Shown: positions 8,415-25,422 of the stretch, piece by piece
How the letters are laid out: the number at the start of each line of letters is the position of its first letter
Numbering within the stretch: position 1 is the first letter of the stretch
Source of the DNA: a phage
Direction: 5' to 3' (one strand)
Assembly: GCA_025830695.1 (NCBI GenBank)
Contig: GCA_025830695.1_4111.2
DNA: 64,000 bases
Position numbers and translations under genes: made by a program
The notes under the pieces: model-generated
What the model was told of the DNA's origin: nothing
The model's input: the letters and a program-made list of their open reading frames with translations, nothing else
Databases searched by the model: none

Positions 8415-8473
8415 TTGCAAACTATGTTTAAAGGCGTATAATGTTTTACATCGAGAGCGGGAACTCTTCCCGC
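8415..8473 (+). promoter_or_regulatory. early promoter + 5-prime hairpin cassette
   Basis: TTGCAA 8415-8420, 16 bp, TATAAT 8437-8442; hairpin GCGGGAA-CTC-TTCCCGC 8457-8473. Confidence 0.7.
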
Positions 8474-8497
8474 TACACTTTAAGAGAGATTAATACG

Positions 8498-8860
8498 ATG
8501 GCGACTCAAATCACTAAAATCATGCTTAACCTGGTAAACTTCCGCGAAGAGATGAAAGGTCTTCCGGCTGAAACTGTAAAAATTCACATTGCAGCTTATC
8601 GGGAACTTATTGCAATGTTACCGCTTAAGCGTGAACAATACGCCGCTACTTTGATGCTTGATTCAATGATCCATGTAATGATCTCAAATGATTTGACGAT
8701 GGTTTATCAGTACATGGGCGAAAATTTCGCGGTGTGTAGTAAACCAGTACCAGGGATGGCAACTACTGAGGAATTGCACGGCTTAAACTTAAAACAAGAT
8801 GCATGGGATAATATGCCTCGTTTCCTGGTATGGGCTGACAGTGGCAAAATTTACAAATAA
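8498..8860 (+). CDS. hypothetical early protein (120 aa)
   Basis: track ORF 8441..8860 begins inside the -10 box; start moved to ATG 8498 (MATQITK). Confidence 0.65.
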   Translation: MATQITKIMLNLVNFREEMKGLPAETVKIHIAAYRELIAMLPLKREQYAATLMLDSMIHVMISNDLTMVYQYMGENFAVCSKPVPGMATTEELHGLNLKQDAWDNMPRFLVWADSGKIYK

Positions 8861-8874
8861 GTTTAATAAAGTAC

Positions 8875-8933
8875 TTGCAAACTATGTTTAATGGCGTATA
8901 ATGTTTTACATCAGGTGGGGAATAGTTCCCCAC
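8875..8933 (+). promoter_or_regulatory. early promoter + 5-prime hairpin cassette
   Basis: TTGCAA 8875-8880, TATAAT 8897-8902, hairpin GTGGGGAA-TAG-TTCCCCAC. Confidence 0.7.
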
Positions 8934-8953
8934 TATATAAGAGGATTAAAAAA

Positions 8954-9193
8954 ATGGCTAAATCAAAAATGTTCTTAGGTCACAAAAACAAAACTCATTG
9001 GAATGTAAGCCTTTGGATTAATAACGATGAATCATTATACCGGTTGGCCCAGGACTTTATTAACGATAGCACTAATCGCAATGATGCGGCCCGTCATATG
9101 ATGTTATTTTTAGAACAGACTGGACAAGATAAAACACCGGACGGATTCAAATATAGCACTACTGCGATCCGTGCGGCGATGGTTGGAATGTAA
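8954..9193 (+). CDS. hypothetical early protein (79 aa), paralog of 10192..10431
   Basis: start moved to ATG 8954 (MAKSKMFLGHKNKTHWNVSLWINN); SD GAGGA. Confidence 0.65.
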   Translation: MAKSKMFLGHKNKTHWNVSLWINNDESLYRLAQDFINDSTNRNDAARHMMLFLEQTGQDKTPDGFKYSTTAIRAAMVGM

Positions 9194-9212
9194 TAGAATT
9201 TATTTAAAGTAC

Positions 9213-9241
9213 TATCATTTTTTGCGATAGTACTTTATAAT
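9213..9241 (+). promoter_or_regulatory. possible promoter (good -10 TATAAT, weak -35)
   Basis: AGTACT...AGTACTTTATAAT 9236-9241. Confidence 0.35.
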
Positions 9242-9278
9242 AGTGTTTTATTCATACACCAACGATAAGGGCAACAGC

Positions 9279-9542
9279 ATGAATATTAAGTATTTTGCGA
9301 CGCGTGAACAAGCTCGGATCGCCGCACGCCAGGACGGGGCAACGTTTAAAGATATGGGCGTACAATCGGAACGTGGTAAACGTTGGGCCATTGTAAAGCG
9401 TAGTACAGCCAGATCATTACAGTACTGGCTATCAGCTTTAAAAAGTCCTGCTAGTGTATCGCGACGAGTGGTAGAAATAAAGCTCGACCGTAAGGGGAAT
9501 CGTGTTACCGTGTACCGTACTAAAAAGATAGCAGTACTATAA
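9279..9542 (+). CDS. hypothetical early protein (87 aa), paralog of 20612..21007
   Basis: start moved to ATG 9279 (MNIKYFATREQARIAARQDG...RKGNRVTVY). Confidence 0.6.
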   Translation: MNIKYFATREQARIAARQDGATFKDMGVQSERGKRWAIVKRSTARSLQYWLSALKSPASVSRRVVEIKLDRKGNRVTVYRTKKIAVL

Positions 9543-9551
9543 AAAAAGTAC

Positions 9552-9610
9552 TTGCAAACTAAGTTTAAAAGCGTATAATACTTTATATCAGGTGGGGAAT
9601 AGTTCCCCAC
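9552..9610 (+). promoter_or_regulatory. early promoter + 5-prime hairpin cassette
   Basis: TTGCAA 9552-9557, TATAAT 9574-9579, hairpin GTGGGGAATAGTTCCCCAC. Confidence 0.7.
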
Positions 9611-9629
9611 TAAAGCAAGGAGTAAAAAA

Positions 9630-9860
9630 ATGACCAATATGTATATGACTGAAGTTAAAACCGTAAAAGATACTACCACTAATAAAACTACTTACTTACA
9701 GCGGATCTGCGGTGTATGGCAACGTATCAGCAAATCAAAGTACTTTAAATTAACATCATATGCCAATCGTTCGGATTCATTCAGTACTGAAATAAAAGGT
9801 AATAAAGTACACCAATACGGCACTTATTATTATTACAGCCTGGACGCGATTGCAGTATAA
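9630..9860 (+). CDS. hypothetical early protein (76 aa)
   Basis: ORF track; SD AAGGAG. Confidence 0.65.
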   Translation: MTNMYMTEVKTVKDTTTNKTTYLQRICGVWQRISKSKYFKLTSYANRSDSFSTEIKGNKVHQYGTYYYYSLDAIAV

Positions 9861-9890
9861 GCAGTTTACAAATCTTTACAATTGCCGGTA

Positions 9891-9919
9891 TTGACTTATT
9901 TTGTCAGTACTGGCATAAT
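9891..9919 (+). promoter_or_regulatory. promoter driving conserved non-coding leader (candidate small RNA)
   Basis: TTGACT 9891-9896, 17 bp, CATAAT 9914-9919; transcript would contain TAGCCCATAGGGTGCGGGAGTGTATCT; no ORF. Confidence 0.45.
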
Positions 9920-10034
9920 GTATTCATTGGCAGATAAGCCGTAGCCCATAGGGTGCGGGAGTGTATCTATAGAAAAATTAGTTTAGTACAGTTACAATTG
10001 TGCACCCGGTGGGTTAGCTGTTGTCATGGGGTAT

Positions 10035-10063
10035 ATTATGCCAGTACTTGATAATGCTGTCAA
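10035..10063 (-). promoter_or_regulatory. minus-strand promoter convergent with 9891 promoter
   Basis: reverse complement TTGACA-17bp-CATAAT; leader ...ACAACAGCTAACCCACCGGGTGC. Confidence 0.45.
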
Positions 10064-10107
10064 TACTTTTTTAATATTCAGTACTGAAAACTATTTTTAA
10101 AAAGTAC

Positions 10108-23910: not shown

Positions 23911-23928
23911 ACTAAAAGGAGTACTAAA

Positions 23929-24153
23929 ATGGCTAACTTTGATGAACTGATGCGGGAAGTAGCTAACCTGGCAGAAGAGAAGAAATCATTCGATTCTATC
24001 TATAACACCGCTCATCGTGATTCAGTACTGGCATGTACTCAGGATCAAAAAGATGAACTAATCGCCACATATCATGAAGCATGGAAGTACTACCGCCAAT
24101 GGGAGAAAGAAGAAAGCGAGTCTACCATCAACGGCATCAATAATCTAATCTAA
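23929..24153 (+). CDS. hypothetical protein (74 aa)
   Basis: ORF track; SD AAGGAG. Confidence 0.65.
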   Translation: MANFDELMREVANLAEEKKSFDSIYNTAHRDSVLACTQDQKDELIATYHEAWKYYRQWEKEESESTINGINNLI

Positions 24154-24171
24154 AGTTTTATTTCAGTACTA

Positions 24172-24200
24172 TTGACATAGCTTGATAGTACTGATATGAT
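24172..24200 (+). promoter_or_regulatory. promoter
   Basis: TTGACA 24172-24177, 17 bp, TATGAT 24195-24200. Confidence 0.55.
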
Positions 24201-24228
24201 AACTTTACTAACTACAAGGGGAAACATC

Positions 24229-24486
24229 ATGGAACAATTCACACAATATCGGGTAAATCCTCAAGCTATGGCCTACGTAGAAGACCATAAAACGTTACCA
24301 GTACTGCAACCAGTTAAAGGCCATATCTATCGTGCGATGGCGTGGAGTACTGCCCAGGATGGCTATAAAACCGTTGCCGTTGGTATGTACTGCGGTAATG
24401 GTGAATGGTTTGATCCAAATAATCCGGTAGCAATTAACAGTACTGAAAAAATGAAATGGGCCGACTACATCGAAGATATTTCATAA
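24229..24486 (+). CDS. hypothetical protein (85 aa)
   Basis: start moved to ATG 24229 (MEQFTQY); SD AAGGGGAAA. Confidence 0.6.
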   Translation: MEQFTQYRVNPQAMAYVEDHKTLPVLQPVKGHIYRAMAWSTAQDGYKTVAVGMYCGNGEWFDPNNPVAINSTEKMKWADYIEDIS

Positions 24487-24493
24487 AAACTAT

Positions 24494-24554
24494 TTGACAG
24501 TACTAACCAGTAATGTATAATGTTTTACATAGAGCGGGGGAATAGTTCTCCCGC
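24494..24554 (+). promoter_or_regulatory. early promoter + 5-prime hairpin cassette
   Basis: TTGACA 24494-24499, TGTATAAT, hairpin GCGGGGGAATAGTTCTCCCGC. Confidence 0.7.
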
Positions 24555-24576
24555 CAATAGTTTGGAGTAAAACATT

Positions 24577-24777
24577 ATGTCTATCGCTCTCGCCCTGGTT
24601 GAAGTACTGAAAGAAGCTAAAGCCAACCTTATCGATGTACAGATTAAGGAATTGCAAAATGGTTTAATCGGCTGTACTTGTACCGCTGGTGGAGCGGCAG
24701 ACTATCGAGAACACGAATCACTAGAATCGTTGGTCCGGTATCTTACAATCATCGTAGAAGATTGGAGAATCATCTAA
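24577..24777 (+). CDS. hypothetical protein (66 aa)
   Basis: ORF track. Confidence 0.65.
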   Translation: MSIALALVEVLKEAKANLIDVQIKELQNGLIGCTCTAGGAADYREHESLESLVRYLTIIVEDWRII

Positions 24778-24793
24778 CAAAAAAGAATAAAAA

Positions 24794-24871
24794 AGGGATT
24801 GACTCCGGTCAGTCCCTTTGCTATTATATACGCATAGACAAAAACTAGCCCACAGGGTGCATAGGTGTATC
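24794..24871 (+). repeat. element R copy 4
   Basis: GGGATTGACTCCGGTCAGTCCCTTTGCTATTATAT...AGCCCACAGGGTGCATAGGTGTATCT; Chi octamer follows at 24907. Confidence 0.65.
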
Positions 24872-24906
24872 TAAAATATATAGTTAATAACGGTGAGTAA
24901 CTATCT

Positions 24907-24914
24907 GCTGGTGG
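24907..24914 (+). other. Chi octamer GCTGGTGG just downstream of element R copy 4
   Basis: exact octamer. Confidence 0.5.
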
Positions 24915-24938
24915 AGTGAAAACTATTAATAAAAAGTA

Positions 24939-24967
24939 TTGACAAAGTATATCAGTACTGCAATAAT
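24939..24967 (+). promoter_or_regulatory. promoter
   Basis: TTGACA 24939-24944, AGTACTGCAATAAT -10 region. Confidence 0.5.
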
Positions 24968-25020
24968 GTATCTCGTAGGGCGGCAATGGTGCGACGGTCC
25001 ACAAAGTTAGGAGATTCAAA

Positions 25021-25353
25021 ATGAGTACTTCAATCGCTATCGTTAAAGCTTTCATCCGTACCAATGTTTCATCTGTATTCATCGACGGTCTGGATCGGGA
25101 AGTAGAATACTCAATCATTATCGCACAGACTGCAAACGGTGCTCGGTATATCCTTAATGATAGTGAAGCAAATCACTACTACTTCACTAAAGCTACTGGC
25201 TTTAAACGCATCGATGCTGACGTAGTATACGCTAAGATGAATAAGCTGGTAGACAAGATTAACGCGAAAGGTACTATCGATTTACAGTACTGGACCGAAA
25301 CCGATCCAGAATATGGTTCTCACCGCTATCTGAATCCAGGTATTAAAATGTAA
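25021..25353 (+). CDS. hypothetical protein (110 aa)
   Basis: ORF track; SD AGGAGA. Confidence 0.65.
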   Translation: MSTSIAIVKAFIRTNVSSVFIDGLDREVEYSIIIAQTANGARYILNDSEANHYYFTKATGFKRIDADVVYAKMNKLVDKINAKGTIDLQYWTETDPEYGSHRYLNPGIKM

Positions 25354-25360
25354 AAAGTAC

Positions 25361-25422
25361 TTGCATAGTACTTAGAATCAAGTATAATGTTTTACATAGA
25401 GAGGGGGAAATGGTTCTCCCTC
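25361..25422 (+). promoter_or_regulatory. early promoter + 5-prime hairpin cassette
   Basis: TTGCAT 25361-25366, TATAAT 25383-25388, hairpin GAGGGGGAAATGGTTCTCCCTC. Confidence 0.7.

Follow-up and report, generated by a model that had tools for sequence, protein, structure and literature searches.

A repeated promoter and stem-loop cassette in the terminal repeat of a jumbo coliphage, and its possible role as a modular unit of early-gene expression

Background

A 64,000-nucleotide stretch of phage DNA (contig GCA_025830695.1_4111.2 of GenBank assembly GCA_025830695.1; termed here the window) contains a crowded array of small open reading frames (ORFs), 22 of which are preceded by variants of a single unit of about 95 bp. 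This unit opens with an A-rich/AGTAC upstream element, followed by a sigma-70 promoter close to consensus and an initial transcribed sequence rich in purines; then come a GC-rich inverted repeat and a Shine-Dalgarno (SD) sequence with its ATG. The 22 promoter-hairpin-SD cassettes all lie on the + strand between positions 8403 and 25445, as delineated by a covariance model, and their presence there is far beyond what chance would produce.

The DNA is that of a jumbo coliphage of the genus Asteriusvirus, whose genomes are ~350-380 kb in size: a megablast search with positions 8400-20400 matched 171 phage records, the top ones being BF17, vB_Ec-M-J, SP27, CRJP21, PBECO4, 121Q and G17--all of them Escherichia jumbo phages of this genus. 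Identity of the window to Asteriusvirus records is 90-99%, at a coverage of merely 40-80% that is split into many pieces. The direct terminal repeat (DTR) of these phages extends approximately from 6769 to 26280 of the window (+ strand): position 6769 is where the vB_Ec-M-J and CRJP21 records both begin, and the end of the DTR annotated for vB_Ec-M-J (1-21525; 21,525 bp), which contains the stretch matching the array, corresponds to about 26280. (For phage fEgEco12 a DTR of 20,993 bp was confirmed by restriction mapping; PMC13070987.) Because the DTR maps in this way, the array at 8415-25422 is its gene-bearing part; that is, the whole set of cassettes lies inside the ~20 kb DTR of an Asteriusvirus phage.

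This DTR probably is an early region transcribed by the host RNA polymerase. In PA5oct, which belongs distantly to the same clade, the highly transcribed early genes are those of the DTR, rifampicin abolishes progeny production, and sigma-70-like promoters occur at transcript starts (PMC7318152); in phage CBB, RpoD-like promoters with UP-like elements are clustered before short hypothetical genes and reach into the terminal repeat (PMC5259590). By analogy, there is good reason to expect that the cassette genes are expressed early. Most of the terminal-repeat ORFs match families of unknown function and nothing else; the recognisable ones--a DksA/TraR-type zinc finger gene (17850-18107), a GNAT acetyltransferase gene (18171-18527) and a weak protein-kinase match (21929-22513)--have predicted products that fit a role in host takeover.

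Number and coordinates of the cassettes

The covariance model, which spans the -10 box through the hairpin and was built from 79 distinct cassettes of the window and six relatives, matches the whole window 22 times at 35-66 bits, always on the + strand and between 8437 and 25433; its next-best matches (<= 28 bits) are promoters without a hairpin. The promoter itself is strongly over-represented: TTGMMA-N16-TATAAT occurs 19 times in the window, all on the + strand (7134-24521), as compared with 0.27 times expected from shuffled sequences. So is its association with a hairpin: a fold of dG <= -8 kcal/mol occurs within the next 35 nt at 22 of the 35 near-consensus promoters of the region, against a background of 4% among all 35-nt segments of the sequence (binomial p ~2e-22).

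Since the region holds ~51 ORFs, fewer than half of its genes have a cassette. It likewise holds ~40 promoters, some 19 of which lack the hairpin: about 11 are plain promoters with neither a purine-rich start nor a hairpin (at 10990, 13977, 16729, 17000, 18114, 19773, 20539, 21321, 21597, 24172 and ~9210), and the others are six composites of a terminator with a -35 box and two promoters followed by a long structured non-coding leader. A first-pass annotation, made from the sequence alone, had described ~30 cassettes, one per small early gene; the number is too high, the model yielding 22, and the one-to-one correspondence is overstated. The consensus given there for the unit (AAAGTAC-TTGCAA or TTGACA, TATAAT, inverted repeat, SD, ATG) is correct in sequence, the perfect repeat GGGGAGAA-TAG-TTCTCCCC occurs at 16448-16466 and 23010-23028, and the reported pairs of paralogous genes are real (8954/10192, 66% identical; 14049/20193, 37%; 9279/20612, 35%).

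Cassette 1 (8403-8501; 52.3 bits) illustrates the layout: AAAGTAC-TTGCAA-16-TATAAT, a predicted transcription start site (TSS) at 8450, a stem-loop at 8456-8474 (AGCGGGAA-ctc-TTCCCGCT) and an ATG at ~8498. For the remaining cassettes the stem-loop, the ATG and the score in bits are given in brackets in that order. Cassette 2, at 8863-8956 (8914-8934, GGTGGGGAA-tag-TTCCCCACT; 8954; 56.5), aligns to both of the cassettes that surround an extra ORF in three relatives. Beyond cassette 3, at 9540-9632 (9591-9611; 9630; 51.5), lies cassette 4, at 10096-10194 (10148-10170, GGCGGGGGAA-tgg-TTCTCCCGCT; 10192; 49.6), which coincides with a recurrent indel junction (10096/10157). Next to it, at 10451-10491 (+ strand), is a half cassette, in which the hairpin GGCGGGTGTGGTTCCCGCC, an SD and an ATG stand before the ORF at 10489 with no promoter; at position 8899 of G17 the homologue of this ORF is preceded by a complete cassette. 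Cassette 5 is at 11239-11332 (11291-11310; 11329; 64.5), with junctions at 11216-11243; cassette 6 is at 11705-11795 (11753-11773; 11793; 48.2); and cassette 7, at 12023-12116 (12077-12093; 12114; 53.8), has the -10 box TACAAT.

The predicted transcript of cassette 8, at 13335-13433 (13387-13408; 13430; 59.8), starts with ATCGAGAGGG, and the module that it heads is 85.5% identical in phage A73. Cassette 9, at 13655-13747 (13708-13725; 13745; 62.3), bears a junction at 13733-13747. Cassettes 10, at 15134-15227 (15186-15205, with an 8-nt loop; 15225; 62.7), and 11, at 15363-15455 (15415-15434, GGGGAGAA-atga-TTCTCCCC; 15453; 66.1), are the left and right partners of a cassette-to-cassette deletion. 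They are followed by cassette 12, at 15961-16054 (16014-16032, with one G-U pair; 16052; 62.6), and by cassette 13, at 16396-16489 (16448-16466, GGGGAGAA-tag-TTCTCCCC; 16487; 59.5), whose promoter is TTGACA-16-TATAAT.

In the right half of the array, cassette 14 at 18519-18617 (stem-loop 18570-18588; 35 bits) has the promoter TTGCAT-17-TATAGT and a junction at 18545, and cassette 15 at 18791-18882 (18843-18862; 18880; 53.5) adjoins, at 18794, an insertion of ~350 bp in five of six relatives. At cassette 16, at 20101-20195 (20152-20173; 20193; 61.7), all six relatives show a duplicated-cassette junction (20101-20199). Cassette 17, at 22653-22747 (22706-22725; 22745; 63.2), again has the predicted transcript start ATCGAGAGGG; cassette 18, at 22958-23053 (23010-23028; 23051; 56.9), has a junction relative to vB_Ec-M-J (22965-23063). 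The last four are cassette 19, at 23507-23600 (23559-23579; 23598; 54.7); cassette 20, at 23842-23931 (23892-23910, GGGGGAG-atatc-CTCCCCC; 23929; 40.7); cassette 21, at 24482-24579 (24534-24554, GCGGGGGAA-tag-TTCTCCCGC; 24577; 50.4), with a junction at 24489; and cassette 22, at 25349-25445 (25397-25425; 25443; 60.7).

Anatomy of the cassette and of its predicted transcript

The promoters are of the form TTGCAA/TTGACA-16-TATAAT, with the AT-rich sequence AAAAAGTAC just upstream; the spacer is 16 bp long in 21 of the 22 cassettes, and TATAAT is followed by 7 nt (typically GTTTTAC) and then by A-T-C/A/G. In cassettes 8 and 17 (promoters at 13347 and 22665) the bases after these 7 nt are ATCGAGAGGG (13382-13391 and 22700-22709). 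In the record of phage T7, the mapped start of the A1 promoter is the A after GATACT-TACAGCC, with which ATCGAGAGGG begins; A1 thus shares with these cassettes both the 7-nt gap and the first ten bases of the transcript. By analogy with T7 A1, +1 was set at the eighth base after the -10 box, and we infer that transcription starts at the A found eight bases 3' of each TATAAT.

From this predicted start, the stem begins at +2 to +8 (that is, 8-14 nt past the -10 box, and mostly 10-13), which leaves an unpaired 5' leader of 1-7 nt (mode 5). The stem is 6-10 bp long (mode 8), with one predicted to be longer (12 pairs); the loop comprises 3 nt in nine cassettes, 4 nt in eight, 5 nt in four and 8 nt in one; and the mean hairpin dG over the 22 cassettes is -13 kcal/mol. 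In most cassettes the 3' end of the stem lies 17-23 nt upstream of the ATG, about 5-8 nt upstream of the SD. Folding of the full leader together with 35 nt of coding sequence gives a mean pairing probability of 0.97 for the stem arms (above 0.9 in 20 of 22) and leaves the SD region mostly open (mean unpaired probability 0.66). Lying downstream of the predicted start, each hairpin would sit at the 5' end of its transcript, as had been proposed at first reading. Many of the loops contain an ATG, but the idea that it opens a leader peptide was rejected: not every loop has it, it follows the SD-like GGAG by only 2 nt, and the hairpin keeps it sequestered.

The AGTAC of the upstream element belongs to a wider pattern. 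The palindrome AGTACT occurs 257 times in the 64 kb (for example at 7107-7122, 8296-8311 and 11270-11277), about 12 times the mononucleotide expectation, most commonly in the context CAGTACTG; its density is ~6 per kb over 0-28 kb, falling to three copies over the whole of 28-32 kb and to zero over 36-40 kb. It stands just 5' of many -35 boxes (AAAGTACTTGCAA) and within many spacers (CAGTACTGTATAAT), the two sites being about two helical turns apart, and it is found throughout coding sequence as well.

Evidence bearing on the nature of the hairpin

An inverted repeat next to a promoter can, in principle, act as DNA. The first-pass annotation had raised the alternative of a DNA operator. Such a double-stranded site would lie at +5 to +27, and a dimeric phage repressor bound there would shut off the early promoters. 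The palindrome does occupy a typical operator position relative to the promoter, and its core half-sites are conserved within the genus. Yet a single stem, GGGGAGAA/TTCTCCCC, occurs with up to six loops (TAG, ATGA, ATGG, AAAC, AATGA and AATGG); the distance between half-sites varies with the loop, which a rigid dimeric DNA-binding protein would not tolerate. Half-site spacing is not fixed among the 22 cassettes, being 3-5 (once 8) nt, and the arms range from 6 to 10 bp. Moreover, the two strands are not equivalent. Among 43 distinct inverted repeats, found with mismatches of any type allowed, internal mismatches are G-T or T-G five times and A-C never; sense-strand G-T mismatches are thus tolerated and A-C mismatches are not. 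Of 83 distinct hairpins, 66 are more stable as the sense RNA and 15 as the antisense RNA, with 57 G-U pairs in sense against 23 in antisense (Wilcoxon p = 6e-10, an optimistic value inasmuch as the sequences are related).

Comparisons within and between genera point the same way. Within the genus, the stem core GGGRAA...TTYCCC is conserved in the 22 leaders of this phage, and the outer positions take GC, CG, AT and TA alternatives, as in G[C/A/T]GGGGAA...TTCCCC[G/T/A]C. (A MAFFT alignment misregistered stems of different length, and pairing on the model-fitted alignment hardly depends on the register; within-genus covariation is therefore given no weight here, and loop-anchored counts and the cross-genus comparison are relied upon instead.) Between genera, the structure is kept and its sequence replaced. 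Klebsiella phage Muenster (Alcyoneusvirus) has a terminal repeat of 20 kb with the same layout, AGTAC-TTGACA-16-TATAAT being followed by a hairpin at the same offset; 11 of the 28 near-consensus promoters of this phage have such a hairpin. The stems are unrelated: GGGGATAC/GTATCCCC, GGGAATGAA/TTCATTCCC, AGAGATTCCA/TGGAATCTCT and GGGGCAA/TTGCCCC. The rV5-like coliphages share the layout, their stems being partly identical and partly GCGGCA/TGCCGC or GGCGGGG/CCCCGC. That relatives keep the hairpin while replacing its sequence again disfavours an operator, which we consider quite improbable.

A second way for the DNA itself to act would be as a hairpin promoter of the phage N4 type, recognised by an RNA polymerase that the virion carries; the short GC stems, with their 3-nt loops, in front of early genes do recall that system. 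Here, however, every hairpin lies behind a consensus sigma-70 promoter, eleven genes have this promoter and no hairpin, loop length ranges from 3 to 5 nt, and the relative PA5oct depends on the host RNA polymerase, which together make this explanation barely credible.

If the hairpin acts in RNA, it might be the site at which a phage-encoded RNA-binding protein or endoribonuclease turns all early messages off, or on, jointly at the early-to-middle transition. The core GGGRAA...TTYCCC is common to the 22 early leaders, and about half of the 5' arms carry GGAG, the motif at which T4 RegB cuts early mRNAs. Such a factor would have to accept loops that vary freely in length and sequence on one stem, as well as stems that differ between genera, and no candidate for it was found among the terminal-repeat ORFs, which mostly belong to families of unknown function; we regard this explanation as improbable. 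The lack of a conserved loop, with up to six loops on one stem, likewise speaks against a lambda-type nut/boxB site, in which an N-like protein recognises a constant loop that is accompanied by boxA. No Rfam family matched; over the window, a scan with Rfam at gathering thresholds and a tRNA scan with ARAGORN yielded no match.

The stem-loop might instead stop or attenuate transcription arriving from upstream while its own promoter drives each gene, which is the role assigned to the promoter early stem-loops (PeSLs) of T4-type phages. In RB49 a PeSL stem-loop alone cut reporter expression like a strong terminator (PMC2839356). Most cassette genes lack a terminator of their own and end directly at the next cassette; therefore upstream transcripts should read through, and the hairpins would then lie between cistrons as well as at 5' ends. 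A true terminator of the same stem family (GGCGGGA-tcag-TCCCGCC, followed by T6) is present at 21030-21072 (+ strand), directly upstream of the SD/ATG at 21070, and one of the 3'-end terminators predicted by ARNold in the G17 annotation coincides with the hairpin of the half cassette. On the other hand, the cassette hairpin always lies between the predicted start and the SD, never within the promoter; being 3' of its own promoter, it would attenuate that promoter equally. A terminator consensus scan of the + strand flagged none of the 22 hairpins, which lack a U-tract, and did flag canonical terminators elsewhere in the region (including 11556, 12431, 13166, 15833, 19530, 21030 and 24792); flagged and unflagged terminators together split the region into some ten blocks that each contain several internal promoters. 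The 'terminator' features of the G17 annotation are all ARNold 3'-end terminators, none being marked as a leader hairpin. An attenuator of this type is thus unlikely.

Finally, the hairpin might be a by-product: the purine-rich initial transcribed sequence (ATCGAGAGGGG...) would be selected for promoter escape, and the pyrimidine-rich 3' arm would merely mask an SD-like leader. The first 10 nt shared with T7 A1 favour this, as do the frequent GGAG or GGGG in the 5' arm and an orientation bias beyond what pairing by itself would demand: across all the phage groups examined, the 5' arm is nearly always purine and the 3' arm pyrimidine. Against it, the plain promoters of the same region have neither the purine-rich start nor the hairpin, and in Muenster the 5' arms differ (GGGAATGAA, AGAGATTCCA) while stems of 9-11 bp are kept. 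This explanation, too, is unlikely.

Taken together, the variation of the loops, the tolerance of G-U pairs on the sense strand, the unrelated stems of Muenster and the 0.97 pairing probability within the leader point to a transcribed RNA stem-loop rather than to an operator or a terminator.

Indel junctions and shuffled modules at the cassettes

Alignment of window positions 5-28 kb to six Asteriusvirus relatives by blastn yields 39 distinct clusters of breakpoints, 14 of which fall inside hairpin cassettes, which make up 12% of the region (p = 1e-4); five further clusters fall in plain promoter units. In at least five events (8870-8949, 10096-10157, 15137-15210/15366-15439, 20101-20199 and 22965-23063) the junction has a duplicated-cassette signature, in which the single cassette of one genome aligns to the two cassettes on either side of an extra ORF in another. 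CRJP21, which lacks the ORF 15225-15371, retains the product of such an event, a chimeric cassette. Its upstream flank and ACATGAA match the cassette at 15146, and everything from the loop onwards (3' arm, SD, gene) matches the one at 15375, which places the crossover in the 5' arm of the hairpin. It is the duplicated-cassette junctions together with this chimera that make the case for cassette-mediated recombination.

Modules have also been reordered. Phage A73 (Vequintavirinae, 142 kb) contains four matching ORF segments, in the order of the window ORFs at 13431, 16487, 8954 and 16052. By window position, their identities are 85.5% (13368-13747), 83.7% (8939-9193), 72% (16473-16772) and 75% (16133-16359), and the best of them covers a cassette, its ORF and the next cassette. 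These similarities suggest an exchange of early genes between unrelated families of E. coli phages. Cassette-associated shuffling, whose absence from related genomes would have told against the idea of modular early genes, is thus present in them, both as junctions at cassettes and as reordered modules. The layout of promoter and 5' hairpin itself occurs in rV5-like coliphages of two subfamilies (A73, 2391-4100; nepoznato, 990-3450).

Comparison with known systems

PeSLs are known from the T4-type phages RB49/phi1, PST/T4 and nt-1/KVP40 (Arbiol et al. 2010, PMC2839356; Comeau et al. 2014, PMC4122927). Their stem-loops, which form five subclasses, lie between or over the -35 and -10 boxes, upstream of the -35 box, or just before the start (PMC2839356), and are described as terminators of upstream transcription (PMC2839356, PMC4122927). 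Adjacent PeSLs can recombine to form mini-circles. The present cassettes resemble them in being repeated units of ~50-100 bp with an AT-rich upstream sequence, a near-consensus sigma-70 promoter, a Gn-loop-Cn stem-loop, an SD and an ATG, in being clustered within a plastic region of small ORFs of unknown function, and in that the indel or replacement junctions of close relatives lie in or beside the units. They differ in that the stem-loop, beginning at about +4 to +8, would belong to the transcript of its own promoter, in that no U-tract follows it, and in that the host genome is that of an Asteriusvirus of ~350-380 kb whose terminal repeat is filled by the array. The resemblance to PeSLs suggested by the first-pass annotation therefore holds for the effects on the genome (junctions at cassettes, shuffling of modules) and fails for the architecture; nor is the phage, a jumbo Asteriusvirus by megablast, a T4-type PeSL phage. 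Because each unit's own promoter would transcribe the stem-loop, which does not look like a terminator, the cassettes are not filed here as PeSLs, but called a PeSL-like variant: the system is known in kind, and a stem-loop downstream of the start is a different architecture. Composites that do have a PeSL-like architecture are present in the window as a separate repeat family, for example at 19530 and 24792 (AAAGGGATTGACTCCGGTCAGTCCCTTT-GCTATTAT) and, in a variant form, at 15833, in each of which a terminator hairpin overlaps the -35 box TTGACT.

In function, the nearest analogues of the hairpin would be 5' stabiliser stem-loops, along with the structured leaders of T7 A1 and A2. Stabilisers of this kind, such as hp1 of E. 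coli ompA and the T7 gene 10 (phi10) leader GGGAGACCACAACGGTTTCCC, begin 0-4 nt from the 5' end of highly expressed messages. They share with the cassette hairpin a short GC-rich stem-loop near the 5' end of the message and upstream of an unstructured SD (the phi10 stem, GGGAGA...TTTCCC, being similar in flavour), and may differ from it in their distance from the 5' end, a leader of 3-7 nt being predicted here. The T7 A1 and A2 leaders likewise fold into 5'-proximal structures (dG -15.9 and -15.1), and A1 shares its 7-nt gap and first 10 transcribed nt with two cassettes; in T7, however, three tandem promoters feed one long early transcript that is processed by RNase III, as opposed to 22 units here, each before its own small ORF. 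As regards genome organisation, the first-step-transfer DNA of T5 and the DTR of PA5oct similarly are long terminal repeats with first-expressed host-takeover genes, transcribed by the host RNA polymerase; the same script, applied to the T5 terminal repeat, found few consensus promoters, no 5' GC hairpins and no such array. The literature searched for Asteriusvirus, RaK2, CBB, fEgEco12 and rV5 yielded neither a description of the promoter-hairpin unit nor TSS data, and the genome papers and GenBank records examined do not mention the hairpins.

A model of cassette function

RNase E prefers single-stranded AU-rich RNA, such as would be transcribed from the promoter sequence just upstream of the hairpins. 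With this in mind, the following model may be proposed. Host sigma-70 RNA polymerase would begin at the A eight bases past each TATAAT, and the first ~30 nt of the transcript would fold into an autonomous stem-loop. This stem-loop, most likely acting in RNA, would protect the short early messages from 5'-end-dependent decay, whether their 5' end is primary or processed: RNA reading through from upstream would be cut in the AU-rich promoter sequence, leaving the hairpin once more near a 5' end. It would also keep the G-rich leader off the ribosome-binding site, so that strong and uniform expression would follow for any ORF placed behind a cassette. As direct repeats, the units would serve as homology patches as well, that is, as recombination substrates through which ORFs are deleted, inserted and exchanged, also with unrelated coliphages. 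We put the probability of this reading--modular early-gene expression cassettes, in which the hairpin stabilises or insulates the leader RNA and the repeats double as patches of homology--at roughly one half; the part concerning stabilisation or insulation is inferred.

Several points weigh against it. Emory, Bouvet and Belasco reportedly found in 1992 that protection by a 5'-terminal stem-loop in E. coli is limited to a leader of about 2-4 nt, and a predicted unpaired leader of 3-7 nt (mode 5) is at or beyond this limit; simple 5'-end protection may therefore be weak. Some 11 promoters of the region presumably work without any hairpin. The strand-asymmetry test rests on related, non-independent sequences, and a within-genus count of pairs on the model-fitted alignment gives 89% pairing, as compared with 85% when the partner is slid by +1, because stems made of G-runs and C-runs pair nearly as well in the slid register. 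The enrichment of breakpoints is not significant against non-coding DNA alone (p = 0.13), and hence the survival of viable intergenic junctions may explain part of it. Lastly, a literature search for Asteriusvirus found no TSS, RNA half-life or expression data.

That the cassettes are real and clearly organised would surprise few phage specialists. What the model adds is a testable account of how dozens of tiny early genes in a 350-kb phage are expressed and turned over, by means of a standard promoter-leader unit that stands before small early genes and is reused as a recombination junction. It extends the PeSL idea past the T4-type phages, with a shifted placement of the stem-loop that makes a role in the mRNA leader, not in termination, the likely one, and it draws attention to whole early-gene modules that Asteriusvirus has in common with unrelated coliphage families. 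Cassettes of this kind might also provide compact, strong and self-contained expression parts for E. coli. A bolder proposal, which is possible and distinctly doubtful, is that the cassettes constitute a 'plug-in' expression standard shared by large coliphages of unrelated families (Asteriusvirus and Alcyoneusvirus among the jumbo phages, Vequintavirinae and Stephanstirmvirinae): small host-takeover genes would move as promoter-hairpin-ORF modules, through recombination between cassettes during co-infection, and the hairpin would be the handle for a phage factor that controls all early messages.

Other features of the terminal repeat

The layout of one promoter per gene inside the DTR contrasts with what lies on both of its sides. 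Genes beyond ~26.3 kb overlap each other and lack individual promoters; both at 26342-27184 and, by homology with G17 and SP27, at window positions 1-5800, there are runs of packed or overlapping ORFs of ~60-70 aa without promoters of their own, and relatives annotate many genes of ~180-210 nt there. The left ~1.6 kb of the DTR itself (6769-8400) contains no convincing ORF. It is dense in CAGTACTGAAT and GATTTTGGGCGTAG repeats, has a 44-nt direct repeat at 8287 and 8340, and carries promoter-like sites on both strands, facing outward and inward (7134+, 7793-, 7918-, 8134-); it may be a region related to packaging, end recognition or injection.

Two further repeated units occur in the DTR. The sequence CCCAYMGGGTGC is present in nine copies, with none expected, all inside the terminal repeat: 7851(-), 9945(+), 10002(-), 11615(-), 15895(+), 17580(+), 19587(+), 22587(+) and 24849(+). 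Each copy lies ~35 nt downstream of a TTGACT/TTGACA-17-TATTAT/CATAAT promoter, several of which have their -35 box within a terminator hairpin (AAAGGGATTGACTCCGGTCAGTCCCTTT), and the + and - units at 9891/10063 form a convergent promoter pair. This unit, which is found in the terminal repeats of the Klebsiella phages Muenster and fENko-Kae01 as well, may represent a family of short non-coding transcripts. The other is an ORF-free, promoter-driven unit of ~80 nt at 19692-19770, ATCAGGACGGGGAAC...CCCCGTTAAGTAGTCCAGGAGTAAGACATACGAAAAACTCCCCTGAT, for which no Rfam family matched. It is closed by a 5'-3' helix and ends directly at the next promoter; a diverged copy lies at 12546-12650, relatives have two copies per terminal repeat, and A73 has the unit at 89% identity (positions 2412-2548).

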